Positions 3,984 to 48,946 of a stretch of 64,000 nt of DNA are shown here, in pieces. The position numbers and the translations under genes were made by a program. This DNA comes from a virus. Within the stretch, counting starts at the first letter, position 1; each line of letters opens with the position of its first letter. Under the pieces are notes generated by a model, which searched no databases, was not told where the DNA came from, and was given only the letters and a program-made list of their open reading frames with translations. The stretch covers positions 1,406 to 65,405 of IMG/VR virus record IMGVR_UViG_3300012683_000001, one strand, 5' to 3'.

Positions 3984-4422
3984 GCTATTTATAGAGATTC
4001 TTATTGCAGCAGCTCTTTTTGGGGCTGGTATTGTATGGTTAGACCGTCATGACGCAGCCCAGCAGGCTATTGGTGAAAAGAATATTAAAGACGCGGATAA
4101 GGCTGGCGTAGAACGCCAGAAAAAGATAGATGACGTAAAGATTGCTGATGCAGGAAGGATAAAAGCCAATGAACTTCAAGAGATTAAAGATCGTTATTCA
4201 GTTGGTCCTGTTAAACTTACTTCTCATATCGTGTGCCACAGCACCGTCCCATTCAGTACCAGCATCGAGACCCAATTACACGGTAGTGAAGGTGGACCCA
4301 CCGTTGACAGGACTGGACACGATGACGTGCATCCAGACATCAGCTACGCCCTTAAAGTGTTTGCCCATCGACTGGATCAACTCAATGCCGAAGCCCGACA
4401 ATTGAATAATGAGACACATTGA
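3976..4422 (+). CDS. i-spanin (Rz-like inner-membrane spanin).
   Basis: N-terminal TM segment LFIEILIAAALFGAGIVWL followed by a charged periplasmic domain. Contains an embedded lipoprotein gene in the +1 frame. Confidence 0.65.
   Translation: MNRLFIEILIAAALFGAGIVWLDRHDAAQQAIGEKNIKDADKAGVERQKKIDDVKIADAGRIKANELQEIKDRYSVGPVKLTSHIVCHSTVPFSTSIETQLHGSEGGPTVDRTGHDDVHPDISYALKVFAHRLDQLNAEARQLNNETH
4169..4405 (+). CDS. o-spanin (Rz1-like outer-membrane lipoprotein), embedded in the i-spanin gene.
   Basis: Signal peptide MNFKRLKIVIQLVLLNLLLISC with lipobox L-I-S-C and a Pro-rich mature part. In a different frame and entirely inside 3976..4422. Confidence 0.65.
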   Translation: MNFKRLKIVIQLVLLNLLLISCATAPSHSVPASRPNYTVVKVDPPLTGLDTMTCIQTSATPLKCLPIDWINSMPKPDN

Positions 4423-13680: not shown

Positions 13681-16600
13681 GTGCCTACATTTTCTGTAGA
13701 TGCTCCAGACGGCAAGACCTATAAAGTAGATGGGCCGTCTGATGCGACTCATGAACAGATTGCCTATGCTGTTTATTTACAGATGCATAGACAACCGGAG
13801 CAGCCTCAGACCAGTACAGCTGGAACTCTTCTTCATGGCGCAGAGCGTGGTGTTGGACCTATGGCCGCAGGTATGGCAGGGGCGGGGTATGGTGCTGGGT
13901 TAGGTACAGCTGTATTACCCGGTATTGGTACAGTTGTAGGTGGTGTACTGGGCGCAGGTATTGCTGCATGGGCAGCTAATAAAGCACAGGATAAAGCCCT
14001 TGAGTCTATGCCCAAGGTGGCTAAAGCCATCGGTGTTGATGAAGCCCAACGGGAAGCAGAAGCCAAAGAACATCCAATAGCTTCAGTGATAGGAGATGTT
14101 GCGCCACAGCTATTGGCTATGCGTCCTAGTGTGACTAATCTGAGTCGTGCGTTTTCAACGGCTGAGAAATTTGCTGCTCGTCATGGTGAGACCATAGAAG
14201 AAGCGGCTAAAGCGATTAATGAAGCCCGTAAATTTGCCGCGATCAACGCCACGATTGGAGGAGTTCAAAATGCTGCTCAACAGGGCATGAGTGATCAGCC
14301 TGTTGATTGGGCCAGTGTAGGTGAGTCCGCGTTATTGGGTGGGTTACTCACTAAGCCTACGCGGGTGGGCAGTGCACTCTATGGTGTGGGTGAACGACTG
14401 GCACCGGGCTATGCGGCACGCCATCCTGCGCCACCGCCTGCTCCACCTCCTAAACTTTTAACTCATGAACCTAACGTATTCCATATGGGGCAGGAGACAG
14501 AACCGACTCCCCCTCCACCGGGGCCGCCACCGCAACTGACTTATCAGCCCGGTGCGCACAGTGTTTCACCAGAAGCACGGGCGTTCCCTGAGCAGGCGCC
14601 ACAACAACCCAACCCACAACAGAGCTTTCCCTTTGAGTGGGCTGGTCCTGAAGCACCGAAACCGCCCCCACCGTTTTCACCGGTTACTCCTCCTATTCAT
14701 CAACAGGGTGAGTTGGGACTAAATCAACCTAAGCAACCTGAACCTCAACCCGTAGAAGCGCAGGGTGATCTTTTTAATAAAGGTCCTAGAATCCGACCAG
14801 AAGTATCTGTACCTGAAGGCCCAGCGCCCACACAAGTCACGTTACCGTTTGAACCCGGTAGCAAGATGGAGCCAACCGTTAGAGGTCAGCGTAAACAGGC
14901 TGTGTTGAATTTTATTAAACAAACTCCTGCAACTCGTGATGAGGTGCAGACGAGCGCAGGCATTGGTAGCGCCACTGAAGTTATTGGTCATCTCAACACT
15001 CTAAAACGTGAAGGGCTTATTCAATATGACCCTGATGCAAAGAAATGGATGCTTAAGCCCGAGGAGAAGCCCAGTGACCAACCACGACAAAAACGGAGTG
15101 GGATTGGAGATCAGTCAACGGGACTTAGAGTTGGCATGGATGTGCCTGTACCACAACGACCCCCCGAGGTCACACCACCTCTTGAATCTATCACAAGAGG
15201 AGTGGTTCCTGATACGACAAACGTTACAGGAAATATTGCTAGAGAAGGCCCAGCACCAGCTCCAATAGAGCGTGATCCTGAACATCAGATTATTAAACGA
15301 CGGGCGATCATTGCCTTCCATAAAGGCAATATTGATGAAAATCAGTTGATGGTCATCAAGAGTGAGTTGGATGACCCCAACCCGGATTTTAAGCACCTAC
15401 ATAAGATGTTGGACGCCGCAACAGGGGCAAAAGATTATCAACGATTAGCATTGATCCGGAAGGCGTTTGCTAATAAAGCACCGTCTAAGCCTGCTGAAGT
15501 TACTAAGCTTGAGACTGATGAAGACCGTCAGGTTCGTGAGTACAACGAGCAGGCTAATGCAAGAGAAGCCAAACAGAAAACGCATCGTAAAGACGAAGAA
15601 GATACTGCTTTAAGGCAAGGTACATCGACTGGCGGTATGTCCAAAGATACCGCGCAGAAGATCGTTGATGAGCATACTAAGAATTGGAAGAATGCACCAA
15701 AAATAGAGGTTCATGAAACACGCCCTGATAACAAACCAGAAGACACTACGGGTTGGCATGATCATGGAGCAGTACATTTAGTTGCAGATCAGCACGCCAA
15801 TCCTGAAGAACTTAAAGCGACTCTATTCCATGAAGCTTTAGGACATTATGGATTACGGAGTAAATTTGGTGATTTTCATAATCAACTCATGCAGGATATT
15901 TATAAATCTAATCCAGCTATGCAAGAAGTCGCTGATCGCTGGATAAAAAATAAAGGAGGTCATGAATTCTATAAAAACATGACACCAGAACAGTTACAGG
16001 CTCGTGCAGTAGATGAAGTATTAGCCAATGCTTCTGAACAAGGTCCAATTAAAAATACTGGTATTCGCGCCGCGTTTAATCGTGTCATAGCTGCTGTACG
16101 TCAGTTCATTCGACAGCATTTAAGTGGTTCATTAAAGTATTCAGATAATGATGTCACTCAAATTTTACGACAGGCCCATGAGAATGTTCTTGATGGACAT
16201 GCCCGGAAAGTATTAGGTGTAGGAGATAAAGAGGATATTGCTCTTAAACAGAAAACTGTAAAAGAACCCTATGTTGAACCCAAGACGATTGAAGATATCG
16301 AAAAAACCCGTACTGAGAAAACTGACAAGCTTTATAAAAATGCTTATAGCCGACCGGGCGTAATTAAAAGTGTAGGAAAGATGTTGGGTAGCCATGAGGG
16401 TCGAGAAGAGATGATTCGACTCCTTCAGAATTATCGGCGTCCATTAGATATCCTAGAAAAGAATATTAATGCCGCAGGCGGTAACGCGGACATTGGTAGC
16501 TTTGCCAGTAGCTTATCGGCTAAAGCTGAGATGGAAAATAAAAATAATATTCAGATGATCAGTACTCAGCGGGCCAATATCGGTAAGCTGGCTCAGAAAC

Positions 16601-19479
16601 TAGGGATGACTCAAGAACAAGTTGAGAAACGGTTACAGTCTTACGCTCTGGCTTTACATGAAAAAGAGCGTCGGCATACGTTGTATACGCTGGATGTTCC
16701 ACTGGAGAACACCAAGAAATTTATGCTTGATGGTCAGAATGCTACGGCAGCGGATCATCGAGATCGTATTGTTAAGAAATATAACAGTGATAAAACTATA
16801 AAAGACCCACAGCAACTCGCTAAGGACCGTCAATTATTAGAACAATTACTAGTTCATGCTGATATTGAAGGTCATACCTCTATCAAAAGAGGTCCAAAGA
16901 GTATGTTATTGGATGAGAATTCCTTGGCCTATAACGTCGCAGGCAAATATAGCCGTAATGCCGTCAAGATCATGGAGAACACACTGGCTCAAGATCGCGC
17001 TAAGACGGGTGATTTGATTGATAAAATTATTGATACCCACCAGCAATTAGCTCAAGAGGCCCGTAGACTCAATCAAAAAGCGGGCTATGAGTCTCCGCAG
17101 GCCACCAACTGGATCGGGCTGTACAACTGGAAACATTACATGCCGTTGAAGGGCGATCCCACAGCCCATAAAAATACTGATCGATTTGACTTCGATGGTA
17201 AAGCATTGGGCGGGGCAGTGAGTGAGCGGGCTGAAGCCTTTGGTGGCCGACGGTCAGATGCGGACAATCCATTTATTCAAACCATGGCTGATGCATTAAA
17301 AGCCGGGTTTAGATCAGGACGAGATGGTTTTACTTCAAGACTGGCTAAATTAATTGATGACGGGCATATTCCCGGACGTAAGGTCGCAGAGGTTAAGTTT
17401 GAGGATCGCGCTGATAAATTAGAGAAATACGAGACTCTTAAAAATCATTTCTTTAATTATCAAAAAGATGGAACGATTGAAGTTTATAAAATCAGTACAG
17501 ACACTGCTAAAGGCAAAGCCATGAATGAAGCCATCCGAGGCTTCAACAATGACATCGCTGCACCTTACCGGTTCTTGAATGCTGTTACAGGCGGTATTGG
17601 CCAATTGCATACACGGTTTAACGTCGCCTTTCCGCCTTATAACTTCGTCCGTCATGCGATTACAAGTTCAATGATGGTGGGAATGGAAAACGATCCTATT
17701 TTAGCTGCTAAGTTCGTGGGGTCTATTACCAGTAAAATATTAGATGGAGGGTTGTTTAAAGCAGCACGAGTGGCAAGCTTATTTCATAACAATGACATGG
17801 CAGGAATTGAAAAATTAGCTAATGCCAGTCCTAATGGGTTTTATGGACAACTCCATGACTGGCTGGAGAATGGTGGCCGTGCCACATGGACTCAGGCTCA
17901 TAATATTCAGTCCCAACGGGCAGAGTTAGCAAGAGCCACAGGTCCCAAGGGCTTCATGAGTAGTCTGGATCATGTAAAACAATATTTTAATATCTGGTCT
18001 GATATGTTTGAATTTGCTTCACGTGCCGCAGGGTACGGTGTAATTAAAAATCATTACAACGAATTGGCTAAGGCCAAGGGTGAAGCTGTAGACACCGATG
18101 ACATTAAGCTCAGAGCAACCCAATATACCAAGAATCTGTTTAACTTCAGTACCGTAGGCAAGTACGGGCGTGAAGTAGGTTCTGCGTTTATGTTCCTGCG
18201 TCCCGCGATGACCACAGCGGTACGGTCCATTGATGCCTTATCGCCGTCGTTCTTATCGATGGATAAGGCTGTGAAGCGAATGGTGCAAGAGACTCCTTCT
18301 CTTGGTGATGTGAATACTGTAGCTCGGATACTGGCTAAACAGGTTAAGTCCAAGGAAATAACACCTGAAATCATGGCTCAGGCTAAAGCAAAAGTCGATC
18401 AGAACATCGAGAACTTTAAGAAAGTTCAGCTTGGTAAACAAAAAGCCGCCCGTGTCATGGCTGTAGGCATGATGGGCGCAGGCTATGGCCTATACACCAT
18501 GGCGATGTTAGCGGGTGAAGAAGATGATCAGGGCCGTAATAAAGTCGCCACTGATAACATGTCCATGTGGGCACGGAATATTCGTCTACCCGCACATGGC
18601 ATGTTGGGTAAAGGAAATGATTATTTCCAGATCCCGTGGGGTTGGGGACTCGGGACTTTCGGTGCTTTCGGTGCGCAGATGGCCGCAGCAACTATTGGAG
18701 AGAGTAATCTCAAAGAAGTCTTAGGTAATATGATCCCCATCGCTTTAGAGTCTTATTTCCCACTCCCAGTGGAAAAGTACAGCCCCATTGATCATCCTAT
18801 TGCATTTACCGTGGCATCGATCATGCCCACTTTCGCTCGACCCTTTATTGAATATGGTATGAACGTGGATGCATTCGGTCGGGAAGTCTATACTAACCGT
18901 ATGAATCAGTTCGGTGATGCCTATTCAGGTGGTGAGAACTTACCTGAATTATATGGGGCTGCAACGCGGATGCTTGCAGATGCAACTGGCAATACGGTAA
19001 ATATTTCCCCAAACACGCTCCATTTCTTCACTAATTCTTATATAGATGGGTTGGCACGACTCGCCCATAATACATATGGCACTGCCCTTACGATAACTGG
19101 ACAAAAAGACTTTGATCCTAAGCGCGACGTTGGCGGCATATTGGATTCTTTTATCGGTAAGTCCAGCAGCTACGATGCGCGTGAGTTCGCAGATATCAGG
19201 ACTCAGATCCAACGGCAACAAAATACCTTGGCCATGTATAAGGACCGACCTGAGATGCTTGATAAGTACCTCGATACTCACCCTAACGCCATCATGATCG
19301 ACAATCTCTACAATGCCGTGGTCAATGGTCAATTGAAAACTGTCCAACATCAACTCCGGGTTTTAGAAGATGATACGAGCCAAAGTTCTAAAGATAAGGC
19401 CGATGAAATTACGGATCTTAAATTACAACGAAACTGGCTCATGCGATCATTCATAGATCAGGTACGCGATTATGATTGA
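13681..19479 (+). CDS. Giant internal virion / DNA-ejection protein (1932 aa) with an HExxH zincin-like motif.
   Basis: N-terminal glycine-zipper hydrophobic segment, Pro-rich linker, HEALGH at 15829-15846, and C-terminal hydrophobic segments. The size is typical of ejection proteins. Confidence 0.55.
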   Translation: MPTFSVDAPDGKTYKVDGPSDATHEQIAYAVYLQMHRQPEQPQTSTAGTLLHGAERGVGPMAAGMAGAGYGAGLGTAVLPGIGTVVGGVLGAGIAAWAANKAQDKALESMPKVAKAIGVDEAQREAEAKEHPIASVIGDVAPQLLAMRPSVTNLSRAFSTAEKFAARHGETIEEAAKAINEARKFAAINATIGGVQNAAQQGMSDQPVDWASVGESALLGGLLTKPTRVGSALYGVGERLAPGYAARHPAPPPAPPPKLLTHEPNVFHMGQETEPTPPPPGPPPQLTYQPGAHSVSPEARAFPEQAPQQPNPQQSFPFEWAGPEAPKPPPPFSPVTPPIHQQGELGLNQPKQPEPQPVEAQGDLFNKGPRIRPEVSVPEGPAPTQVTLPFEPGSKMEPTVRGQRKQAVLNFIKQTPATRDEVQTSAGIGSATEVIGHLNTLKREGLIQYDPDAKKWMLKPEEKPSDQPRQKRSGIGDQSTGLRVGMDVPVPQRPPEVTPPLESITRGVVPDTTNVTGNIAREGPAPAPIERDPEHQIIKRRAIIAFHKGNIDENQLMVIKSELDDPNPDFKHLHKMLDAATGAKDYQRLALIRKAFANKAPSKPAEVTKLETDEDRQVREYNEQANAREAKQKTHRKDEEDTALRQGTSTGGMSKDTAQKIVDEHTKNWKNAPKIEVHETRPDNKPEDTTGWHDHGAVHLVADQHANPEELKATLFHEALGHYGLRSKFGDFHNQLMQDIYKSNPAMQEVADRWIKNKGGHEFYKNMTPEQLQARAVDEVLANASEQGPIKNTGIRAAFNRVIAAVRQFIRQHLSGSLKYSDNDVTQILRQAHENVLDGHARKVLGVGDKEDIALKQKTVKEPYVEPKTIEDIEKTRTEKTDKLYKNAYSRPGVIKSVGKMLGSHEGREEMIRLLQNYRRPLDILEKNINAAGGNADIGSFASSLSAKAEMENKNNIQMISTQRANIGKLAQKLGMTQEQVEKRLQSYALALHEKERRHTLYTLDVPLENTKKFMLDGQNATAADHRDRIVKKYNSDKTIKDPQQLAKDRQLLEQLLVHADIEGHTSIKRGPKSMLLDENSLAYNVAGKYSRNAVKIMENTLAQDRAKTGDLIDKIIDTHQQLAQEARRLNQKAGYESPQATNWIGLYNWKHYMPLKGDPTAHKNTDRFDFDGKALGGAVSERAEAFGGRRSDADNPFIQTMADALKAGFRSGRDGFTSRLAKLIDDGHIPGRKVAEVKFEDRADKLEKYETLKNHFFNYQKDGTIEVYKISTDTAKGKAMNEAIRGFNNDIAAPYRFLNAVTGGIGQLHTRFNVAFPPYNFVRHAITSSMMVGMENDPILAAKFVGSITSKILDGGLFKAARVASLFHNNDMAGIEKLANASPNGFYGQLHDWLENGGRATWTQAHNIQSQRAELARATGPKGFMSSLDHVKQYFNIWSDMFEFASRAAGYGVIKNHYNELAKAKGEAVDTDDIKLRATQYTKNLFNFSTVGKYGREVGSAFMFLRPAMTTAVRSIDALSPSFLSMDKAVKRMVQETPSLGDVNTVARILAKQVKSKEITPEIMAQAKAKVDQNIENFKKVQLGKQKAARVMAVGMMGAGYGLYTMAMLAGEEDDQGRNKVATDNMSMWARNIRLPAHGMLGKGNDYFQIPWGWGLGTFGAFGAQMAAATIGESNLKEVLGNMIPIALESYFPLPVEKYSPIDHPIAFTVASIMPTFARPFIEYGMNVDAFGREVYTNRMNQFGDAYSGGENLPELYGAATRMLADATGNTVNISPNTLHFFTNSYIDGLARLAHNTYGTALTITGQKDFDPKRDVGGILDSFIGKSSSYDAREFADIRTQIQRQQNTLAMYKDRPEMLDKYLDTHPNAIMIDNLYNAVVNGQLKTVQHQLRVLEDDTSQSSKDKADEITDLKLQRNWLMRSFIDQVRDYD

Positions 19480-19654
19480 GCCATTCTCCTAATATAATTA
19501 ACGTATCCTCCAAGTGCGGATGCCCAGTAACCCACTCTCGGTCACTGCATAACTCTTTACTTTGATCCCACATTCTTTGGCTCTTGTATCTGTTATATAA
19601 ATCAATTCCGCTGGCCGCAAGGTAGGTATGAAGAACGAATTTCCCACCAGCATT

Positions 19655-19680
19655 CCTGAAAATGGGAACAGCCATTCAGG
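19655..19680 (+). terminator. Hairpin in the convergent intergenic region, possibly a bidirectional terminator.
   Basis: CCTGAAAATGG-gaacag-CCATTCAGG followed by TTCTTG. Confidence 0.3.
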
Positions 19681-31269: not shown

Positions 31270-31601
31270 TTTAATTCCTCAATCTTCTCTAACAATTCTG
31301 TTATGTCATCGGGCTCTAGTCCAACAATCACATCTTCTGTGATTCCAGAGTCATAACACAACTCATCGTTCTTGAGTACTGCTAACTCAAATCCATGGAT
31401 CATGGGGCCAAAGATCACGCTGGCCCCATAATTATTTTTAAACTTGACATGCGCTCGCATGAAACCCGTGACCTTAAAGCGGTCGTCAAGCTCGTGCCAA
31501 TTCGTAAACTGAAGATCAGTAAACTTCACTTCTTCTCGCCTACATTCAGAAACGGTATCGGCGCACCCGCATAGATCGCTTCCGGTAATGTCCCACTCCA
31601 C
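31266..31601 (-). CDS. Hypothetical protein.
   Basis: 111-aa ORF overlapping its neighbours. Confidence 0.35.
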   Translation of the reverse strand: MEWDITGSDLCGCADTVSECRREEVKFTDLQFTNWHELDDRFKVTGFMRAHVKFKNNYGASVIFGPMIHGFELAVLKNDELCYDSGITEDVIVGLEPDDITELLEKIEELK

Positions 31602-32470
31602 TTCTGTGCCTGCACAAGCGAGACTTCAATCCGCTTCAACTCCAGCACTTGTGGATTGGTCGAAATGGCGTGAGCCGTCACTTCCAATGCCCGAGCGTTG
31701 GCTTCTGCGTTTTTAATTGTGGCATAGGCAGAACCATCTGCTGTTGCTTTAACTGCTGATGCTTCTGCTTCTGCGATGGCCACCTTCTGTTTCTGCTCTG
31801 ATTCAACAGTCTTTAGTTTATTGTCAGCCGCTTGGCGTAGCTGCTCTTGCGTGACCTTCTCATTAATGGCTTTCATATATGATTCACTGAAAGCAAAATT
31901 CCGCATGTCGATGTTCACGACATGAGCACCATATAGTTCCAGCTTCTTACCCAAGGCCGCATAAATATCCGATGAGACCAATGCTCGTTTTGCAATCAGG
32001 TCAGGAGCGTTGTATTTAGCTGTGACTGCTTTAAAGATTTCATGCGTGGCGGTTTGGACATAGCTGGACAGATCACCGTCATGGCTATACTTTTCATAAA
32101 CCTCTGCCACCTTATCGGTCTCGATGGCATACCGTACCGTGAGGCTAACGGCCACTGGCTGTGTATCACTTGTTGCGCCTTGCGCATTCTCAACATCAGC
32201 CTGCTCTGATCTAATACTAAATAATGCCAACTTACGCCATGGGGGTAGGACTGCTAAACCTTCACCCTCAATACCTACAATCTTGCCGAATTGCGTGACG
32301 ACGCCACGGCTACCTGTAGGGACTGAATAGAAAGGCCAAAGAATAGCCACAAGAATCCAGATGCCAATGACACTCCCTATATCTTTAAAAATAGCAAACC
32401 AATTAGGGACAGTTTCTTTTCCGTAACTCCTTGTAACAACTTGTGTCCAACGATCTTTGATGTTCATCAT
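31526..32470 (-). CDS. SPFH / band-7 (stomatin/prohibitin-like) membrane protein.
   Basis: N-terminal TM segment GIWILVAILWPFY, an SPFH core VVTQFGKIVGIEGEGLAVLPPW, and a C-terminal coiled coil. Confidence 0.7.
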   Translation of the reverse strand: MMNIKDRWTQVVTRSYGKETVPNWFAIFKDIGSVIGIWILVAILWPFYSVPTGSRGVVTQFGKIVGIEGEGLAVLPPWRKLALFSIRSEQADVENAQGATSDTQPVAVSLTVRYAIETDKVAEVYEKYSHDGDLSSYVQTATHEIFKAVTAKYNAPDLIAKRALVSSDIYAALGKKLELYGAHVVNIDMRNFAFSESYMKAINEKVTQEQLRQAADNKLKTVESEQKQKVAIAEAEASAVKATADGSAYATIKNAEANARALEVTAHAISTNPQVLELKRIEVSLVQAQKWSGTLPEAIYAGAPIPFLNVGEKK

Positions 32471-32580
32471 TTTTCATCCTTTGCTTTAGGTATAAACCCG
32501 TACTTTACTCCGAACCAATAAGCGACTCTTACTAATCCATACGTTGTAAGAGCCAGTATAAGAATGTCTACAATAATCAT
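32467..32580 (-). CDS. Tiny TM peptide (37 aa) coupled to the SPFH gene.
   Basis: MIIVDILILALTTYGLVRVAYWFGVKYGFIPKAKDEK. Its TGA overlaps the SPFH ATG. Confidence 0.3.
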   Translation of the reverse strand: MIIVDILILALTTYGLVRVAYWFGVKYGFIPKAKDEK

Positions 32581-32582
32581 AA

Positions 32583-33707
32583 TTATTCATCCGTATCAAA
32601 AGAAACAGCCGCCGGCTGCGCCGTTACTGGGCGAATGCCGTGCTTTTTACGATTAATCGAATCAATCAGTTTCTCAGTTGCGCCCCCATGCTTACGATGA
32701 ATGGCATAAACTTTAGCGACTGTAATAGACCCTGATTCTCTCTCTAGTTCCTGCATCGCCATGAAGCTACCCCCTACTTTCGTCATCAATGCCTTGGCTT
32801 CTTGCTTGTCTAAATTCCGAGTGAACATATGCATGAAGCACCGACCGGGACGAACGAGTGCGTCATCGACACTATTAATGCTTGGCAGATTCGTAGAGAA
32901 GATAATCTTTCTACCCTGCGCCTGTGCAATACCATCAGAGATATTAAGAAATCGATGTAGATGCTTGTTGCCTGATGATCTGGGTGTGATCATATGATCC
33001 GCATCTTCAATCAACAGTACATCGTAACTGCCTGAAATAAAGTGGATAAAAACCTCGTCGGACTCCCATACTGTAGCATCACCTGAATAAATAGCGCTTG
33101 CCCGCTCACCCTTACGAACGGTCATTTCACGCAAAATGGCTCGCACCAACCGAGTCTTACCCATACCCGGTGGACCTTGAAGAATCAAAATAGTCTCTTC
33201 GGCTTCTAGATAATCATTAATAAACTTATCGACACCATTCTTAAGAGTGGGGTAAGCCTCATCAAGAACACTAGTCGGCTGCTCAACTGTCGAGGTACCT
33301 TGCAATTTACCATTAACAGTGAACCGCCATTCTAGATCAAAAAGGATTGTGTCGATCTTGAAAGGGAGGATTTGATCCATGAAGAACTTGAACTCAGTCT
33401 CAAGAACTTCCTTGTCTCCTGCCCACATTTTAATAAAGAAATTAGCGTAGCTTGGTTTACCGCTTGCGGTAATGACAGCAAACGCGCCATCACGTTGAAG
33501 AATGACTTCCCCAAGTCCCGCATGTTGTACTTCCCATTTACTTGTATTAAGTGAATCAATACAAATTTTAGGATCTTGTTTAATAACCACCCGCTCATCG
33601 CGGTAGAATTTACACTGATCTTTATGATCAATTAGAAACTGATGACGCCGAATTTCTTCTACATCATCAGATCTTAATCCCAAACTAACTTTCGTGGGAT
33701 CAGTCAC
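32583..33707 (-). CDS. AAA+ ATPase (classic AAA clade).
   Basis: Walker A ILQGPPGMGKTRL, Walker B LLIEDADH, and arginine finger VRPGRCF. Confidence 0.75.
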   Translation of the reverse strand: MTDPTKVSLGLRSDDVEEIRRHQFLIDHKDQCKFYRDERVVIKQDPKICIDSLNTSKWEVQHAGLGEVILQRDGAFAVITASGKPSYANFFIKMWAGDKEVLETEFKFFMDQILPFKIDTILFDLEWRFTVNGKLQGTSTVEQPTSVLDEAYPTLKNGVDKFINDYLEAEETILILQGPPGMGKTRLVRAILREMTVRKGERASAIYSGDATVWESDEVFIHFISGSYDVLLIEDADHMITPRSSGNKHLHRFLNISDGIAQAQGRKIIFSTNLPSINSVDDALVRPGRCFMHMFTRNLDKQEAKALMTKVGGSFMAMQELERESGSITVAKVYAIHRKHGGATEKLIDSINRKKHGIRPVTAQPAAVSFDTDE

Positions 33708-38208: not shown

Positions 38209-39233
38209 GGTACCTTATCGCACACAAACCACGATTGCTGTCCCGCTGTGTACGCCATGGAATCTGTGTCACTCCAAAATTCATTGGTAATAGGGATTAG
38301 ATGTGTCTTGTCTAAATGATCTAATTTCTTATTGAGGTTTTCCCTGTTTACCTTACACAAGCCCAAAGAGGCCATTAGATTATCTCTAAAAGAATTGGGT
38401 ATGTTGTCTAATCCATCATAAACCCCAAACGGAACGACAGCATGATCTATTGCATCTTTAGAAAAGAGACTGGGGAGATACCTCCCATTGTGATAGGTTT
38501 CTCTAAATACTTTTACAAATGAAGCGCAGTGGAGCGCCCCAACGAGTAATCCCTTTTGTCCCCCTGCTCTAGCAATAAAATACTTTTCACGATCAAACAT
38601 TTGCGCTGCGTCTTTCAGATACTTCTCGAAAGCCTTTTCTTGCTTCTCGACCCGCTGCCATGTCAGCAAAATATCGTTCTGATAATCCGTAGGCACATCA
38701 GCCATCGTCTTACCACCCAATAGAATATGAAGTAGCCATTCCTGAGAGATTCGATGTAGATTCATGTCCTCATGGCTGTACTTGTTATAGTTATCCAAAT
38801 AAGTCCTAACGAGAGTATCAATAACATCAGGCAATTTTCTTAGCTCTGCATCATCTATCATTTGTTTTACAGTTAATCCAGCGCCCTTAGTCTCATCTCT
38901 GAGCTTTTGTGCGATATACCGAATACTTTTACTCTCGATGACCGTATCCGTTGCGGGTAAAGCCCTAATAGAATCCGACAGGCCAAGAATAGAATAGGCT
39001 TTCTCACTCCCACCACCTGTGACTTTTAAGTACACCGCTTGTACGCCCGCTGCCGTTCCCATAATGACGCTTTTAGCGATTGTGGGCCCACTTTGGTCCC
39101 AATACGTTGCAAAAAGTTTGCCTCCACTGTTGTAGTACAGAGTCAACACCAAGGGCCAGAGATCAGACTGCTTCATCTTATCTTTACTGGCTTGTAAGAT
39201 ATTTCCATAGGGATAAAACACCGCATCAGTCAT
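38205..39233 (-). CDS. Hypothetical protein (342 aa).
   Basis: Long ORF with ATGA coupling. Confidence 0.45.
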   Translation of the reverse strand: MTDAVFYPYGNILQASKDKMKQSDLWPLVLTLYYNSGGKLFATYWDQSGPTIAKSVIMGTAAGVQAVYLKVTGGGSEKAYSILGLSDSIRALPATDTVIESKSIRYIAQKLRDETKGAGLTVKQMIDDAELRKLPDVIDTLVRTYLDNYNKYSHEDMNLHRISQEWLLHILLGGKTMADVPTDYQNDILLTWQRVEKQEKAFEKYLKDAAQMFDREKYFIARAGGQKGLLVGALHCASFVKVFRETYHNGRYLPSLFSKDAIDHAVVPFGVYDGLDNIPNSFRDNLMASLGLCKVNRENLNKKLDHLDKTHLIPITNEFWSDTDSMAYTAGQQSWFVCDKVP

Positions 39234-39423
39234 GTTTGTCTACTCCGTAAGCGATTTCAACAAATTTATGGAAAAATGTGGGATTAGCAAACTGCATAAA
39301 CCAACCATGTTCTCTGTCATGAACATAACCTTCATTGAGTATCTTCCATAAAGTCATCAATGAATTATCGATCATGGCCCTCGCTATGATCTGAGTCTTT
39401 ATCATTGGTATATAACAAGTCAC
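39226..39423 (-). CDS. Small protein, 'TLxxLWxxLN' family member.
   Basis: SLMTLWKILNEGY. Confidence 0.4.
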   Translation of the reverse strand: MTCYIPMIKTQIIARAMIDNSLMTLWKILNEGYVHDREHGWFMQFANPTFFHKFVEIAYGVDKHD

Positions 39424-39434
39424 GTCGCCAGTTC

Positions 39435-39650
39435 CTAATACCGTTCCACCACATGATGGAGTTCTATTAACTCACTCGGGATATTATCCATCCACGCTGA
39501 TGATGCTTCTACAGAAAGATTAAACCGGTAGTCCGCGTTATCAAAGATATAATTTTCATTTAGTATTTTCCACAGCACTGTCAGTGAACTGACAATAATA
39601 GATTTAGCGAAATACTGATTCATGATCAATGGCAGTAAGGAATTACTCAA
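39435..39650 (-). CDS. Small protein, 'TLxxLWxxLN' family member.
   Basis: SLTVLWKILNENY. Paralog of 39226..39423. Confidence 0.4.
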   Translation of the reverse strand: MSNSLLPLIMNQYFAKSIIVSSLTVLWKILNENYIFDNADYRFNLSVEASSAWMDNIPSELIELHHVVERY

Positions 39651-40900
39651 TGTCGCTTACTCCTGAAGTTCACCTTCTTCCCCATCGGTGGATTAAAACT
39701 TTCATTCTGTGTCACCAGCCATAGTGTAGGAACTCGGATGGCCCATTGCACATCACTTTCCACATATCCATCGGTAAAGACCACGACACAATCCGCGTCG
39801 ATCTTCCGCTTAGACAAGTATTGGCTGACGCTACTCACACACGTCCCACCACCGCCTTTTGGTTTCAGCAAAGTTCTGATGTTCGCAAAGCTCGCTTCTT
39901 CAAAGACTTGCTCGCCATGAACCTTAGTGTCCCACCACAACACTCTCACTCGATCCGGCTTGCTGAGTTCACAGATGCCCGCGATTTCGCCAGCAAATTC
40001 ATCCAACTGTTCCTGTCCAATAGACCCTGATGTATCGATGGCAATGATGACCTCACCTATTTTTTCGTTCTCCGTTGAAGGCAGGTAGTAATCATCCACC
40101 AGCCTTCGCTTGTTATATTTCTTATAGGTGTACTCGTCCGTGCCTTTGGTCGTTGTCGTTACAAAATCCCGCGTCTCATCTGCCCAATCAACCTCCGGCT
40201 CCATCGCATCCCGCAGTGCCCGTGGGATTTCCATGCCCATCCGGCCCGCGAGTAATCCACCTTGCTGGATCGCTTCTGTAATCTTCGCCATAATTTCCTG
40301 AACCTGTTCGGGTGTCGCTCCAGAAAGCGTACTTCCATCGTGTTCATCGTGGCCCTCCAGTCCGTATTGCTTGTCTCCAATCTGTACTCCATCGATCTCT
40401 CGACCGCCCACTTTAATCTTGATCTTCTTCGGTTTCCCTTTTTGTGAGCCTTGATTGGTCTGCCCTTTCTTAAGAAAGTTATAGACCTCACGCACTGACC
40501 AATTCCTAAACTGTGAATCATGTAACCCATTGTCGGGAAGATTCACTAATTGAGCATCCTGCTCTTTAGTCAGTACGATCAAATCATTGACTACATAGTC
40601 CATGGCTGCATTGGCCAGTTGCTGATCTTCACGCATTAAATCCAGATGCCTTGGGATATGCTTTAAGAACACGTGAAGATTTTCATGCAATACCCCACCA
40701 CACATCTTGGGCATGTCCTGATCATCGACCCACTTCCTGCCGTAATGTTTGTTCACACCATCCGTACAGGCCGTCGGGAATTTCTCATCGATTGTACTTT
40801 CACCGAGCATCATGGCCCCAATGAATGGGGCCGTGAGCCTGTGTTTCATTAAGCGCACGTGGGCCTTCTTGAGTTTAAGTTCTGCTACTTCTTTGGACAT
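39647..40900 (-). CDS. vWA-domain protein with an N-terminal DUF2201-like putative metallopeptidase domain.
   Basis: MIDAS DxSxS (IIAIDTSGSIG) and N-terminal His-rich helices (ENLHVFLKHIPRH). Confidence 0.65.
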   Translation of the reverse strand: MSKEVAELKLKKAHVRLMKHRLTAPFIGAMMLGESTIDEKFPTACTDGVNKHYGRKWVDDQDMPKMCGGVLHENLHVFLKHIPRHLDLMREDQQLANAAMDYVVNDLIVLTKEQDAQLVNLPDNGLHDSQFRNWSVREVYNFLKKGQTNQGSQKGKPKKIKIKVGGREIDGVQIGDKQYGLEGHDEHDGSTLSGATPEQVQEIMAKITEAIQQGGLLAGRMGMEIPRALRDAMEPEVDWADETRDFVTTTTKGTDEYTYKKYNKRRLVDDYYLPSTENEKIGEVIIAIDTSGSIGQEQLDEFAGEIAGICELSKPDRVRVLWWDTKVHGEQVFEEASFANIRTLLKPKGGGGTCVSSVSQYLSKRKIDADCVVVFTDGYVESDVQWAIRVPTLWLVTQNESFNPPMGKKVNFRSKRH

Positions 40901-41153
40901 GTTTGGTTTCCTCTAATTTTTCAATTTCAAAAGTTCGCTGCATACACCTAGTATAACAAGTACACATAGAACCCTTATTAAGACTATCCCATAAACATTC
41001 TAATGCAATTACTATTACGTCTTTACTTGCAAGTTGATCACTCTGCTTTGAGTTGGCTGAGTATGTCATTGACTTGTCCATAGACGACATATTTACAGGC
41101 GTAATGTGATGCGATCCCTGCGAAGAATCCGAGTATGTTTCCGCCCATATCAT
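40875..41153 (-). CDS. Small protein, 'LWxxLN' family member.
   Basis: ALECLWDSLNKG. Confidence 0.3.
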   Translation of the reverse strand: MIWAETYSDSSQGSHHITPVNMSSMDKSMTYSANSKQSDQLASKDVIVIALECLWDSLNKGSMCTCYTRCMQRTFEIEKLEETKHVQRSSRT

Positions 41154-41265
41154 TGAGTTTAGAAGCAGCGTAGCCTAAGAAAAAGAATCCTATGAATGCC
41201 ATCGAGTACTTAAACTTGATGGGCTTTGCAATGATCTGCTTGATTGTAAAAGTTTTTTCAGCCAT
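41038..41265 (-). CDS. Small two-TM membrane protein.
   Basis: RBS GAGGAAAGCAAAC, then MAEKTFTIKQ... with two hydrophobic helices. Confidence 0.35.
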   Translation of the reverse strand: MAEKTFTIKQIIAKPIKFKYSMAFIGFFFLGYAASKLNDMGGNILGFFAGIASHYACKYVVYGQVNDILSQLKAE

Positions 41266-41440
41266 GTTTGCTTTCCTCATACTCGAATAACTTGATCCAC
41301 TTTAGATCACTGCTGAATATAGATAGTATTGTATTAGTCGCAAAACCACGAGTATTATTCTCATTAAGAATATGCCAGATAATATGCAATGTCGTCGTGA
41401 TTTCCCAATGTGCATGCTTGGCTTTATTAAAGTCAGCCAT
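41258..41440 (-). CDS. Small protein, family member and tandem duplicate.
   Basis: HAHWEITTTLHIIWHILNENN. C-terminal LFEYEESKHG is shared with 41437..41611. Confidence 0.45.
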   Translation of the reverse strand: MADFNKAKHAHWEITTTLHIIWHILNENNTRGFATNTILSIFSSDLKWIKLFEYEESKHG

Positions 41441-41611
41441 GTTTGCTTTCCTCATACTCGAATAACTCGATCCACTTTTCATCGTACTTAAATATCCCAG
41501 GCCAATTTCTGTCTCGTGTTTCACCATTATTAAGCTCTGCCCACAATAAACTGAGCGTCTGCTTAATTTCCCAATGAGCGTGTCTAATATCAGATTTAGG
41601 ATCGATACTCA
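41437..41611 (-). CDS. Small protein, family member and tandem duplicate.
   Basis: HAHWEIKQTLSLLWAELNNG. The ATGGCTGA overlap makes its stop coincide with the next gene's start. Confidence 0.45.
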
Positions 41612-41613
41612 TA

Positions 41614-41850
41614 TCAATGATAGAAACGCCTAGCTTTCATTCTTTCCCACTTCATATTTAACAGCTCATCTCTACGACCTCCGAATATACGAAAAGAATT
41701 ATACATATATGAGGCTGCTATTTCACAGTGATAGTAATAGTAATTACTCCGCTTTCGCCTGTCTTTTCTGTTCAACAATCGGCCTAGACTATTCAAGGTA
41801 GGTTCGACGTAATGTTTATAGATCAACCGCATTTTTACTTTCCAATTCAA
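41614..41850 (-). CDS. Small basic protein, possible family member.
   Basis: TLNSLGRLLNRK. Confidence 0.3.
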   Translation of the reverse strand: MNWKVKMRLIYKHYVEPTLNSLGRLLNRKDRRKRSNYYYYHCEIAASYMYNSFRIFGGRRDELLNMKWERMKARRFYH

Positions 41851-42037
41851 AAGTTCGGTTCATGAAATGATAAAATGATCGAGTCGATACAGGGACATGA
41901 TGATTCAAATAAAACCACAGATGACTCAATGCCCGTTCTCTAACCCACTGTTGGTAAACTTGACTGGTCGTTTCATGACCCCTTATAAAATCCGTAATTG
42001 GGTATGAAATTGTATGTCTCACTGTTTGGGATTCCAA
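41816..42037 (-). CDS. Small protein, family member.
   Basis: ALSHLWFYLNHH. Confidence 0.35.
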   Translation of the reverse strand: MESQTVRHTISYPITDFIRGHETTSQVYQQWVRERALSHLWFYLNHHVPVSTRSFYHFMNRTFELESKNAVDL

Positions 42038-42204
42038 AATGCTAAAGCTGTATCCTTCATACCATCTAAAACTTCAAGGCCATCGTGATCCCACTTGTAC
42101 CACTGCTGAGGATGATTGATTTGATCCTTTCTGTACTTCGTATTTAAAAATAACCACATAGCCCTCAAAGTCTTGGCTACAGTAGTTGTATAAACTCTTC
42201 TCAC
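42019..42204 (-). CDS. Small protein, family member.
   Basis: TLRAMWLFLNTKY. Confidence 0.35.
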   Translation of the reverse strand: MRRVYTTTVAKTLRAMWLFLNTKYRKDQINHPQQWYKWDHDGLEVLDGMKDTALAFWNPKQ

Positions 42205-42428
42205 TTTCTAATCTCAATTAAATCAGCCCACTGAAGATCAAATCTAAATATTCTTCCCCAACGCTCGTTGTCATAGCCCAAAGTCACTCCATTCAATTCT
42301 CTCGCCAAAAGCTCAAGCGTTTTCATGATCTCGATGCGGGCCTGTTCTTTATCCTGTTCCATAGTAAACTCTACACGTCCACGAGAACGACTCGGAATAC
42401 TAATCACGTCTATAACCTCATTACTCAT
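42201..42428 (-). CDS. Small protein, family member.
   Basis: TLELLARELNGV. Confidence 0.35.
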   Translation of the reverse strand: MSNEVIDVISIPSRSRGRVEFTMEQDKEQARIEIMKTLELLARELNGVTLGYDNERWGRIFRFDLQWADLIEIRK

Positions 42429-42609
42429 GTTCTAATCTGTCTCTTAATCTCTCGCTCAGTATCTCGCGCGTTTCCATCTGAGAAGAAACATAATCCATCC
42501 ATAGACGAGCATGATGAAAAAGAGGGTCTGGTTTATTTAACTGTGAACTTAAACGTATAAGACTGGTCTTGACTGCACTCATCAGACTAAGTGGGATTTC
42601 TTTATTCAC
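42421..42609 (-). CDS. Small protein, family member.
   Basis: SLIRLSSQLNK. Confidence 0.3.
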   Translation of the reverse strand: MNKEIPLSLMSAVKTSLIRLSSQLNKPDPLFHHARLWMDYVSSQMETREILSERLRDRLEHE

Positions 42610-42838
42610 GCTCTATTTCTTTCGATGCCATATATATCCAATACCCTAAAGTTTCACGGTAATAAGCGATATAGCCCATGCCATGTTCATCAGTTACACC
42701 ATTCAGATACATAAAAAGATACTTTAGACTTAGATCAGTAGGAGTAAATCCGTCGTGTACAGTTTTCATCCAACGAGGAACCATATCGATTATCCAACGA
42801 GAAATCATGTAAACAACGCAAAGTTCTTGATCATCCAA
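42602..42838 (-). CDS. Small protein, family member.
   Basis: SLKYLFMYLNGV. Confidence 0.3.
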   Translation of the reverse strand: MDDQELCVVYMISRWIIDMVPRWMKTVHDGFTPTDLSLKYLFMYLNGVTDEHGMGYIAYYRETLGYWIYMASKEIERE

Positions 42839-43926
42839 TCTGACAACATCTTATTACTCTTGGCCAGTCGTACCGTCTTTTTAGACTGGCACACACTGGC
42901 ATAGAAGATCGCCTGCATTTCAGAGTTCTTCATGCGAACCACAAACTTCATGAACTGAGATAAATCATCCTGCGTCTCAATCTCATCTATGGCGTTAAAC
43001 AAAATCATGAGAAGCGCGCCAATGTTGGTCGGCATGGCCACAGACTCTGGATTGGTCATGATCACACTCACGGGCACCAAGTCTTTCTCGATGAGAAAGA
43101 AACTCGCCATCGCTTCTGCTGCCGCTTGCCCTACTGTCCCGGCCATCGCTGCCCGCGTAACCAGTTCCCCTAGACCGTTCCTGTTACGCACGATCACATC
43201 GTTCTTGACCAATGAACGAGGACTGACAAAACTCAACACAGTCTTGGCCGGATTAAAGATGTACGGATTGTCTTTGAGTTCATCGTCCGTCAGTTCAGTG
43301 TAGCTATTCAAACATTTGGTATTCATAGCCACCCACGCTCTTGTGAGAGCCGATACCCCATTATCAGTAGCCCATACGTTCCACGACTTATGGTCGGGCT
43401 TGCGCATGTTGAGCAACATGACGCGATTGCCTGCATGAGCCAGCATGGTGTCACCTACACCATCAGTTGTATTGTTAGACGTTGCGAACACAATGGAATG
43501 ATCAGGCAATGGCACGTCACCAATAGTCCGCTCTAGCATCAGGCGAGTACCGATGATCTGAAGCATCTTCGGGCCTTTCATGAATTCATCCAGCATGATC
43601 ACTTTAGGCCGTGGATCATCAGTAGCGAATAGCCCAGACACATAACTGATCAGCTGTTTTGTTGCATGATCCGGTATGCGCATGACGATATCGGACAGGT
43701 CCAACACGGGCCAGTCCGCGTAGATGTAGACGTACTTGTCTTTAGCAAAGCGTTGCCCCGGCACTCGCCACTGATCCCCGTGCAGTTCTGCAATCATTCC
43801 CAACATGCTGGACTTGCCACAGCCCGGCTCACTCCTGATCACTGGAGTCAGCTGATCACCCACGGTCATGATCAACTTGACGCACTGATCAATCGAAATC
43901 TTTTCACTGAGATTCAACTTAGCCAT
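42805..43926 (-). CDS. MoxR-like AAA+ ATPase (AAA_5).
   Basis: Walker A EPGCGKSS, Walker B VIMLDEF, sensor FATSN. Start MAKLNLS with RBS AAAGGAAAC. Confidence 0.7.
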   Translation of the reverse strand: MAKLNLSEKISIDQCVKLIMTVGDQLTPVIRSEPGCGKSSMLGMIAELHGDQWRVPGQRFAKDKYVYIYADWPVLDLSDIVMRIPDHATKQLISYVSGLFATDDPRPKVIMLDEFMKGPKMLQIIGTRLMLERTIGDVPLPDHSIVFATSNNTTDGVGDTMLAHAGNRVMLLNMRKPDHKSWNVWATDNGVSALTRAWVAMNTKCLNSYTELTDDELKDNPYIFNPAKTVLSFVSPRSLVKNDVIVRNRNGLGELVTRAAMAGTVGQAAAEAMASFFLIEKDLVPVSVIMTNPESVAMPTNIGALLMILFNAIDEIETQDDLSQFMKFVVRMKNSEMQAIFYASVCQSKKTVRLAKSNKMLSDWMIKNFALFT

Positions 43927-43937
43927 GTTTGTTTCCT

Positions 43938-44162
43938 TTATAGGACGATTAAAACTCTCTTTACAATCCAACCCTCTTCTTTAAGATCCTCTACTGATCT
44001 ACTCCCACTCCATAAAGAGCTTGATGCTAGTGCATACAATTCTTCCGGTGGGGTGTCATAATTAGCTAATCGATAAGCAATGTTAGTACCATCATCTTTA
44101 GTCAAGATCGTACAGACATGGGCCACACCCAACATTTCATCAGGATAATCTGGTTTAGTCAT
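43938..44162 (-). CDS. Small protein, one of three tandem paralogs.
   Basis: C-terminal EEGWIVKRVLIVL. Confidence 0.4.
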   Translation of the reverse strand: MTKPDYPDEMLGVAHVCTILTKDDGTNIAYRLANYDTPPEELYALASSSLWSGSRSVEDLKEEGWIVKRVLIVL

Positions 44163-44356
44163 ACAATCACCATGACCCTACCTAAAGTATAGCCTTCTAT
44201 CTTCAATTTATTTCTTGATTCTAAACTACGCTCATCAAACATATGAACAGCATCTTCAGGTGTATGAAAAAGTTTCATTATAAAATGCCCTTGAGGATTC
44301 ACGTATGTCCACATGATATGAGCCCGACATATAGGCTCCGTTGCAGGGATATCCAT
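44159..44356 (-). CDS. Small protein, one of three tandem paralogs.
   Basis: C-terminal EGYTLGRVMVIV. Confidence 0.4.
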   Translation of the reverse strand: MDIPATEPICRAHIMWTYVNPQGHFIMKLFHTPEDAVHMFDERSLESRNKLKIEGYTLGRVMVIV

Positions 44357-44614
44357 TTAAATCACCAACAAAGCCCGTCTGATACGCCAACCATTTTTAA
44401 TCAACTCTTCTTTAGTAGTGCCGTATTCACTCTTAAAACTTTCCAGTACTTTCCACATGATTTCACCACCATGTTGCGTCCCCAATATCCGATAAATAAT
44501 GGCCGATGATTTATCTTCTTGATAGCCGCCCTTCTTCCACGCGATCCACACCACAAAGACCTCTCCTAACGGCGGACCTTCAATCGGTACACCGTGATCA
44601 ATCGGCTTGGTCAC
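44357..44614 (-). CDS. Small protein, one of three tandem paralogs.
   Basis: C-terminal KNGWRIRRALLVI. Confidence 0.4.
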   Translation of the reverse strand: MTKPIDHGVPIEGPPLGEVFVVWIAWKKGGYQEDKSSAIIYRILGTQHGGEIMWKVLESFKSEYGTTKEELIKNGWRIRRALLVI

Positions 44615-48312: not shown

Positions 48313-48642
48313 TTAAATGTTCTCTTTTGCTTTGGTGATTGCTGGCTCATGTGAACTCCAGATGGTGAGTGCTTTGCCGTCGGTGTCGTAAGCGTGGGTA
48401 AAATCTTCTTGAAGATTGTATCTCCGTAGCGCTTCTGTGAATGCCGGGTCTGTTGCAAAAGTTTTTCCTGATTTATAGATCACTTCTTTTTCAATGTCGA
48501 TGACCACATGAATGCCTGAGATATCTGCACCGACGACCACGCCTCGTAGTTTATGTTTACCGGATAATATAATGATTTCACCGACCCTGAAAATAAGATC
48601 AGGTTTATCAGGAGTATCCCACTCTGGATTAAATTCTGTCAC
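48313..48642 (-). CDS. Small beta-rich protein, paralog pair member.
   Basis: RVGEIIILSGKHKLRGVVVGADISGIHVVIDIE. Confidence 0.4.
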   Translation of the reverse strand: MTEFNPEWDTPDKPDLIFRVGEIIILSGKHKLRGVVVGADISGIHVVIDIEKEVIYKSGKTFATDPAFTEALRRYNLQEDFTHAYDTDGKALTIWSSHEPAITKAKENI

Positions 48643-48946
48643 GTGATGGAACCTTATGGCGTCCAGCGATCAGAGGATAATTTCTTCCCGTATTGGTTCT
48701 GACATGCTCGAATTTATGTTCCACTAATGGCCACCGGATAATGAAATCTCTTTCGATATCGATGATCACATGGATTGCTGCATGGGAAGCCCCCACGACG
48801 ACACCGATTTCTCCAGCGTATATCGGTCCTCGTTTTCGGGTCAGGACTGTCTCGCTGAATTTGATCACATGCCCCACGCGGTAGGTCAGTCGTGTTCTCT
48901 TCGATCCTGTTCTCTTGGGATTACTCATGGGCCAGCGGGGTGTCAC
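48629..48946 (-). CDS. Small beta-rich protein, paralog pair member.
   Basis: RVGHVIKFSE...GEIGVVVGASHAAIHVIIDIE. Confidence 0.4.
   Translation of the reverse strand: MTPRWPMSNPKRTGSKRTRLTYRVGHVIKFSETVLTRKRGPIYAGEIGVVVGASHAAIHVIIDIERDFIIRWPLVEHKFEHVRTNTGRNYPLIAGRHKVPSRDRI

Follow-up and report, generated by a model that had tools for sequence, protein, structure and literature searches.

The stretch of DNA analysed here (64 kb of the IMG/VR virus record IMGVR_UViG_3300012683_000001; hereafter the window) comes from the genome of an uncultured tailed soil phage, with terminase, portal and virion genes on the plus strand and a long minus-strand block that holds primase, helicase, DNA polymerase and many small genes. 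Inside this block, twelve small genes lie between the gene for an ATPase, assigned to the MoxR class through its structural model, and a conserved gene for a protein of 342 amino acids (aa); the gene for a DUF2201 protein with a vWA domain stands among them. Eleven of the twelve carry a common helix motif. This family of small proteins, the way it may have grown and its possible relation to the ATPase and the vWA protein are the subject of this report.

The window is part of a 70,927-bp metagenomic contig (ENA ERZ27253174 k141_2248389, identical sequence), and the same sequence occurs as fragments in Logan SRR6267154 and in the JGI soil samples Ga0137412 and Ga0137413 (99.9-100% identity). A metagenome scan with the ATPase returned fragments of this same phage only, and in all public copies the array sequence is identical. 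Compared with 50,697 deposited phage genomes, the window as a whole had no DNA similarity to any of them, nor did the 5 kb array region match any of these records in near or distant search modes.

Layout of the small-gene array

At least 11 minus-strand open reading frames (ORFs) of 60-90 aa had been proposed for this region by the first-pass annotation, which was made from the letters of the window. All 11 were found where they had been placed, within 39226-42808. With realistic start codons, however, they encode 53-75 aa. The genes are listed below from the ATPase gene downwards.

42805..43926, minus strand: AAA+ ATPase, MoxR-class by its structural model, 373 aa; first conserved gene of the module
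42602..42808, minus strand: o12, 68 aa, motif SLKYLFMYLN; weakly supported member
42421..42609, minus strand: o11, 62 aa, GTG start, motif SLIRLSSQLN; weakly supported member
42201..42428, minus strand: o10, 75 aa, motif TLELLARELN
42019..42204, minus strand: o9, 61 aa, GTG start, motif TLRAMWLFLN
41816..42022, minus strand: o8, 68 aa, GTG start at 42022 (an alternative TTG start at 42037 would give 73 aa), motif ALSHLWFYLN
41614..41832, minus strand: o7, 72 aa, very basic (isoelectric point, pI, 10.2), motif TLNSLGRLLN
41433..41612, minus strand: o6, 59 aa, motif TLSLLWAELN
41258..41440, minus strand: o5, 60 aa, motif TLHIIWHILN
41038..41265, minus strand: o4b, 75 aa, hydrophobic (grand average of hydropathy +0.39); the twelfth array gene, an unrelated non-member
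40875..41069, minus strand: o4, 64 aa, motif ALECLWDSLN; the vWA gene has its ribosome-binding site and start within the last codons of o4
39647..40900, minus strand: DUF2201 protein with an N-terminal zincin-like domain (HENLH) and a C-terminal vWA domain (DTSGS MIDAS motif)
39435..39650, minus strand: o2, 71 aa, TTG start, motif SLTVLWKILN
39226..39423, minus strand: o1, 65 aa, GTG start, motif SLMTLWKILN; the conserved 342-aa gene starts inside its end

The family thus stands on both sides of the DUF2201 vWA gene, as had been proposed, with o4-o12 on one side and o1-o2 on the other. From the stop codon of the ATPase gene to the start of the 342-aa gene, the region is tiled by the twelve same-strand small ORFs, whose junctions are stop/start overlaps of 4 or 8 nucleotides (nt), gaps of 1 or 11 nt and overlaps of 20-32 nt. 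The ATG of o12 overlaps the ATPase stop codon (ATGA), and the sequences GTGAATAA and ATGAGTAA form the o12/o11 and o11/o10 junctions. Overlaps of the GTGA type join o10 to o9 and o9 to o8, a 20-nt overlap joins o8 to o7, and a 1-nt gap separates o7 from o6. The o6/o5 and o5/o4b junctions both read GAGGAAAGCAAAC-ATG-GCTGA, the start of o5 overlapping the end of o6. Further on there is a 32-nt overlap of o4b with o4, then GAGGAAACCAAAC-ATG at the o4/vWA junction, a TTGA overlap of o2 with the vWA stop codon (the AGGAG ribosome-binding site lies inside the end of the vWA gene), an 11-nt gap between o2 and o1, and GACAAAC-ATG-ACTGA between o1 and the 342-aa gene. Public gene callers missed o11; o12 is called in public assemblies, and o4b in the ENA contig.

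Promoter- or terminator-like sites were not enriched inside the array, and none of them was convincing. Combined with the tight packing of the genes, this suggests that the array, the ATPase gene and the vWA gene form one translationally coupled transcription unit. The ATPase and vWA block is probably a single operon, and co-expression of the array with the middle genes of the replication block is predicted as part of the best-supported reading.

A shared helix and the extent of the family

The proposal of a shared helix held against shuffled controls. The pattern [STA]L..[LIM]...LN has 13 matches in the six-frame translation of the window, 11 of them in the array, one per ORF and always in the ORF's own frame, while residue shuffles of the 11 proteins gave a mean of 0.011 matching proteins. 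At its expected position, the motif would arise by chance about 0.001 times per ORF. An unsupervised Gibbs motif search, to which no pattern was given, returned the same block in 10 of the 11 proteins (z = 8.4 versus shuffles). As all six leucine codons are in use at the conserved leucine positions and the motif lies 30-40 codons away from the start of the next gene, the constraint acts at the level of the protein.

Outside the helix, which can be written as [STA]L..[LIM][W]..LN, the members diverge widely, with pI values from 4.8 to 10.2, and Tandem Repeats Finder detects no array at the DNA level. The best-scoring pairs in phmmer comparisons are o5-o6 (52 bits), o1-o2 (29 bits) and o6-o10 (22 bits). 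Beyond these, significance is reached in the window only by antisense shadows of the same pairs, by a sense/antisense pair (50.45-50.68 kb) and by two adjacent paralogs near 48.3-48.9 kb. The last are two ORFs of 105-109 aa (48313-48946, minus strand; 18.5 bits) and form the sole other significant same-strand adjacent pair.

Membership was assessed with leave-one-out profiles searched against all 1073 ORF segments of the window. Seven members were recovered at rank 1 with E<0.01 (o1, o2, o4, o5, o6, o7 and o10; for example, o1 at 6e-6, o10 at 9e-5, o4 at 4e-4 and o7 at 0.007), and o8 and o9 at rank 1 with weaker values (0.03 and 0.07, respectively). The profiles did not recover o11 (rank 5, E 2.3) or o12 (rank 44, E 26). 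By these sequence comparisons, nine members are secure, and two, o11 and o12, which have the motif and the position, are probable. We also considered o4b as a divergent member (FLGYAASKLN) and rejected it, as the family profile matches only the junction that it shares with o5; the initiation regions of these two genes are exactly equal.

The best match of the family profiles outside the array is a possible outlying relative:

19451..19675, minus strand: 74-aa ORF that follows the primase gene; the motif (TLIILGEWLNHNRVPDL) is close to the C-terminus

The C-terminal helix of a VRR-NUC-like nuclease (LWLVLN in the window, LMFLILN in the sister phage described below) is likely a coincidental match and was left out of the count.

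An AlphaFold2 model of o6, built on the nine-member family alignment, has three helices (residues 5-29, 34-40 and 45-58) and a predicted local distance difference test (pLDDT) score of 76. The motif closes the first helix, which is the longest one predicted. Its hydrophobic residues are spaced as L, L/I-W, L (i, i+3/4, i+7), and the asparagine is followed by Gly, Glu, Asn or Lys; this pattern would fit a buried face and the asparagine a helix cap. A Foldseek comparison of the o6 model with BFVD and PDB gave no structural neighbour at E<1.

Profile searches of phage and metagenome databases had been named as a way to expose the family as unrelated single-copy genes of known function. No such genes came up: the family profile found no homologue beyond the phage's own proteins among 5.8 billion protein clusters, and no accepted one among 1.84 billion representatives searched with full HMMER. 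Three eukaryotic repeat proteins that matched the profile were discarded as repeat artefacts. Matches of a wider motif profile were limited to proteins of this phage and of the sister phage, IMG/VR scans with o6 and o2 gave no match, and Pfam, PHROG and PDB-sequence scans of the small proteins, which included no dedicated anti-defence library, gave nothing better than E 0.03. The family is new, yet of a known sort, that is, fast-evolving tandem accessory genes of phages.

The o5 and o6 genes had been read as a recent tandem duplication of about 170 bp with a common LFEYEESKHG end. Over their full length, however, the two units are 63% identical (shuffles, 52 +/- 2%), and the close likeness is confined to their last 51 nt, which form a direct repeat at two gene junctions:

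41258..41308: 51-nt direct repeat, copy 1, at the o5/o4b junction
41433..41483: 51-nt direct repeat, copy 2, at the o6/o5 junction

The copies are 94% identical and spaced by 175 nt. One frame of the repeat encodes LFEYEESKHG, which is thus present as claimed, and another frame holds the ribosome-binding site and start codon of the next gene, so that the common ending is due to a translation-initiation consensus. One public contig of the phage (L082) breaks off inside copy 2.

This consensus, GGAAAnCAAAC-ATG, precedes o5, o4b and the genes for the ATPase, the vWA protein and the 342-aa protein. In the window, the minus strand has 11 copies of CAAACATG and the plus strand one, and at least 8 of the 11 minus-strand sites are at gene starts, namely those of the five genes just named and of the genes starting at 51573, 37144 and 27850. 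It appears to be a phage-specific translation-initiation consensus. As it sits at the junctions, the C-terminal K-H(G/D) likeness of o1, o4, o5 and o6 reflects a constraint at the DNA level. CAAAC-ATG, often with GGAAA upstream, can be seen on the minus strand at, for example, 51578, 43931, 40905, 39238, 37149, 36064 and 27855. A further likeness of endings, RTFELES of o8 and RTFEIEK of o4, is visible as a DNA repeat (D2).

The ATPase/vWA pair and its relatives

The ATPase belongs to PHROG 1297 'ATPase' (E 8e-40), and its Walker A (EPGCGKSS) and Walker B (VIMLDEF) motifs are invariant in alignments of 21 and 32 homologues. It has no match in Pfam, NCBIfam or PDB sequences; a few homologues carry PF07728 AAA_5, and the homologue profile matches AAA modules of midasin, each weakly. 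Its AlphaFold2 model (pLDDT 84.7, predicted template modelling score 0.78) is closest in the PDB, by Foldseek, to NorQ (E 8e-9, template modelling score 0.61-0.64), CbbQ (6l1q, 5c3c) and CHU_0153 (2r44), which are all ATPases of the MoxR class that act together with vWA partners. The early assignment to the MoxR class is thus right at the structural level, with NorQ and CbbQ as best matches and Pfam silent.

The vWA protein (PHROG 1314) matches DUF2201_N and DUF2201 (PF13203, 1e-23; PF09967, 2e-19) with 84.6 and 70.7 bits versus gathering cut-offs of 23.2 and 26.4, and both HENLH (HExxH) and DTSGS (DxSxS) can be read from its translation. The first-pass annotation had thus named both genes of the pair correctly. 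PHROG 1314 and many RefSeq records of N4-like phages name this protein 'HNH endonuclease'. Its domain content does not support this name, which looks like a propagated mis-annotation.

Comparison with the NorQ/NorD and CbbQ/CbbO systems shows likenesses and differences. As in those systems, the ATPase is of the MoxR class, the partner has a vWA domain with a DxSxS MIDAS motif, and the two genes are adjacent in nearly all relatives. Unlike in those systems, the ATPase is beyond detection by Pfam, the vWA protein adds an N-terminal zincin-like DUF2201_N domain, and the pair in this phage, although within the same tightly coupled block, is split by 1.9 kb of small genes.

The conserved module consists of a 300-aa protein, the MoxR-class ATPase, the DUF2201 zincin and vWA protein and the 342-aa protein. 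N4-like phages (Schitoviridae) and others have the same two families (PHROG 1297 and PHROG 1314) in the same order within a block of replication genes, and an N4-like Vibrio phage has 7 nt between the two. However, the vWA protein is 25-29% identical to those of cultured phages, which lack a small-gene array at the pair. In IMG/VR we compared 80 loci with vWA proteins 44-52% identical to that of the window. All keep the order of 300-aa gene, ATPase, vWA and nuclease, with 15-320 nt between the ATPase and vWA genes. This gap is empty or holds one small ORF; such single ORFs belong to several families, all unrelated to that of the array, and the family profile had no match among 14,880 ORF segments from the 80 loci.

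Closer relatives were found through the identity of the ATPase (57-71%). One of them (L092, 71%) has a 68-aa gene before the vWA gene and an 86-aa gene after it, another (L095, 57%) has one 87-aa gene in the gap, and a third (L093, 65%) has none. The small-protein family is absent from all three. In total, more than 100 phages carry the pair without the family. The first-pass annotation had the family embedded in the pair, possibly as its adaptors or substrates. This does not agree with the 80 IMG/VR relatives and L092, L093 and L095, which all keep the pair and lack the family. The pair would thus work without it, and the array behaves as a lineage-specific tandem expansion at a hot spot of insertion and duplication rather than as a component of the pair. 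To judge from these gene orders, small accessory genes have repeatedly landed and duplicated in the gap between the two genes of the pair.

The two small genes that flank the vWA gene in L092 share only their first ~10 codons (MVRG...; 2600-2640 and 4105-4145), and a common palindromic element, AACTAGATTCCCCTC-ATG-GTGAGGGGAA, lies upstream of them. It is possible that this element is a hairpin signal or a recombination site flanking the vWA gene. A scan of GTDB genomes with the vWA protein gave a single fragment of a metagenome-assembled genome, without the small-protein family. A 2.7 kb contig binned to a Verrucomicrobiota genome (L089; Terrimicrobiaceae, JBMOHW010000284.1) contains the final part of a related vWA gene (residues 307-410, 60% identity), with the conserved downstream genes directly after it; the binning is either a weak hint at a host or an artefact.

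The ATPase of a sister phage (L090/L098) is 69% identical to that of the window. This phage comes from a 68 kb contig, of which NCBI has a copy (QGNH01001256.1). Its ATPase-vWA gap contains five small genes: three tandem paralogs of another family (L090 9124-9743, MEFK...IRNFHGV; 70-91 bits pairwise), one for an 83-aa protein (TLISFAKLLNE) and one for a 79-aa protein. The trio shares a junction sequence with the 83-aa gene that follows, and an indel of 28 nt in the first trio copy distinguishes the NCBI version of the contig.

The early region of the sister phage (L090 2665-8017, equal to L098 8641-13971) is made up largely of tandem clusters of small paralogs: five genes of 44-48 aa, four or five Trp-rich ones of 63-75 aa and a Cys-rich pair of 86-91 aa (126 bits). 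About 17 small ORFs of this phage end in h..hh[W]..LN followed by 1-11 residues; a strict pattern has nine matches versus ~0.3-0.5 expected. Most of the motif ORFs are found 1-5 kb upstream of the ATPase; the occupants of the gap belong mainly to another family. Ten of the sister-phage proteins gave no match in Pfam and PHROG scans.

A profile made from the sister C-terminal motifs alone places five motif ORFs of the window at the top of its 1073 segments: the 19451-19675 ORF (E 0.0016; P = 0.02 in hhalign), o2, o5, o1 and o7. In profile-profile comparison of the two sets of proteins, only the motif aligns (hhalign P = 0.004-0.09) and no common feature was found beyond it. The link between the two phages is therefore suggestive, but unproven. 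The next gene's ATG in the sister phage often falls inside TTA-AAT-GAA (Leu-Asn-Glu), with G-rich Trp/Gly/Ala-Glu codons ~8 nt upstream, and part of the motif conservation there may thus be dual coding.

Origin and possible role of the array

We hold with moderate confidence that the array is a tandem expansion peculiar to this lineage, in which a new family of small, soluble and mostly helical proteins multiplied at a hot spot of accessory genes, and that these are likely to be host-interaction proteins, probably outside the ATPase/vWA machine. The array would have grown by repeated unequal recombination, with duplication units that, from the anatomy of the region, seem to run from junction to junction. 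Because each junction carries the preferred ribosome-binding site and start GGAAAnCAAAC-ATG, the 3' ends of the genes would stay alike while the rest drifts, and the 51-nt repeat that flanks o5 may still serve recombination by which more copies are gained or lost. The proteins probably have a small three-helix fold with a hydrophobic core built from the conserved Leu/Trp/Leu face and the Asn cap, and the variable surfaces could give each copy a different binding partner. A role in host interaction, either host takeover or anti-defence, is most likely by analogy with the amplified counter-defence genes of T-even phages.

In T-even phages, segmental amplification ('accordion') of counter-defence genes is known for tifA against toxIN and as SegB-driven amplification (PMC9391042, PMC13096335). 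Common to both cases is tandem copy gain of small accessory genes by recombination at short repeats, for which arrays of diverging paralogs are the expected outcome. The T-even copies, however, are recent and near-identical, were seen in the laboratory and have a known target, whereas those described here are old and highly diverged.

Several points weigh against this explanation. As all public copies are identical in the array, a change in copy number is not directly seen. The o6 model is of moderate confidence, rests on nine sequences and has no structural neighbours, so that the core-helix interpretation is tentative. The ties of o11 and o12 to the family consist of motif and position alone, and the host-interaction role is a proposal by analogy. 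Finally, co-translation with the ATPase and the zincin and vWA protein keeps a functional link with them possible.

Another idea is that the LN helix is not the core of a fold but a portable docking motif, which brings unrelated small proteins to one partner, be it a host hub or a phage machine. The sister phage speaks for it, since its ~17 motif ORFs are of several unrelated-looking types (44-aa mini-proteins, Trp-rich and Cys-rich proteins) with the same motif end, and since the profile of these ends ranks window ORFs first; profile-profile comparison shows nothing else in common between the two sets. However, the similarity between the phages is weak, the sister motif overlaps the ribosome-binding site and start of the next gene, which alone favours such sequences, and the motif of the window is part of the longest predicted helix and has a spacing typical of a buried face. 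We find this idea unlikely.

It is improbable, in our judgement, that the MoxR ATPase and the zincin and vWA protein have the small proteins as their substrates, precursors or adaptors, in which case the locus would correspond, in a phage, to MoxR-vWA systems of bacteria. Such bacterial systems have been described (Kaur et al. 2020, PMC7159879): some are coupled to a zincin peptidase and to small precursors that diverge rapidly but share a conserved C-terminal peptide, and MoxR-vWA systems coupled to multi-copy small DUF397 proteins are described as well. Given this work, the early statement that such an arrangement has not been described is too strong. Here, too, MoxR, vWA and a zincin-like domain stand beside several small, fast-diverging proteins, which in the sister phage are conserved C-terminally like the bacterial precursors. 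The array genes are translationally coupled to those of the pair, the HExxH and DxSxS motifs are intact, and ATPases of the NorQ/CbbQ class work via vWA adaptors. On the other hand, the zincin is fused to the vWA protein in this phage, and the small proteins are absent from almost all phages with the pair. The motif is not C-terminal in the window, and the motif ORFs of the sister phage are mostly located outside the pair. Apart from DUF2201_N and DUF2201 in the vWA protein, Pfam gives nothing in the neighbours, so that neither a third component (VMAP or iSTAND) nor effector domains fused to the vWA protein were found, and Pfam and PHROG scans of the small proteins gave no similarity to FxSxx or DUF397.

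A bolder variant, which we judge quite improbable, is that the LN helix is a portable tag that delivers diversifying small proteins (11 here, ~17 in the sister phage) to one machine, possibly the MoxR ATPase with the zincin and vWA protein, for remodelling or cleavage. If true, the bacterial MoxR-vWA conflict systems that process peptides would have a counterpart among viruses.

The motif might also be mainly a by-product of a nucleic-acid signal (ribosome-binding site and start codon of overlapping downstream genes) rather than a selected feature of the protein. This is very doubtful. The start context in the sister phage would agree with it, and the K-H(G/D) likeness in the window clearly arises in this way. 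However, no meaningful ORF begins at the LN helix of the window, and both its distance from the next start and the diversity of its leucine codons speak against such an origin. We rejected a DNA-level origin of the motif for the window, but not for the sister phage. It is scarcely credible that the small ORFs, or some of them, arose by chance in non-coding spacer DNA: o11, o9 and o8 are not called in every public assembly and several GTG or TTG starts have weak ribosome-binding sites, but twelve same-strand ORFs cover the region with the motif always in frame, paralog scores reach 52 bits and the shuffle tests are strongly significant.

With 11 copies, the family is among the larger tandem small-protein expansions in a phage of ~71 kb. 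It points to the gap in the MoxR-like ATPase/DUF2201 pair, which is conserved in N4-like and many uncultured phages, as a recurrent site of small genes, and the array suggests that gene junctions, with their ribosome-binding site and start codon, can serve as recombination handles for growth. If the copies are host-interaction or counter-defence proteins, the array would document a long arms race in nature and could supply new inhibitors.

Three further observations concern other parts of the window. Upstream of the ATPase gene (43938-44614, minus strand), three small genes for proteins of 74, 65 and 85 aa resemble a weak paralog trio with a common MTKP start and an EGW.h.Rhhhh end (best pair, ~10 bits). 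At 31526-33707 (minus strand), a second ATPase gene (PF00004 AAA in the ENA gene call) adjoins a Band_7/'lipoprotein' gene (PHROG 200) in the replication block. On the plus strand (13681-19479), a protein of 1932 aa combines an LPD38 'large polyvalent protein' domain with a HEALGH zincin motif and long linkers rich in proline; it is probably a virion protein, either internal or ejected.

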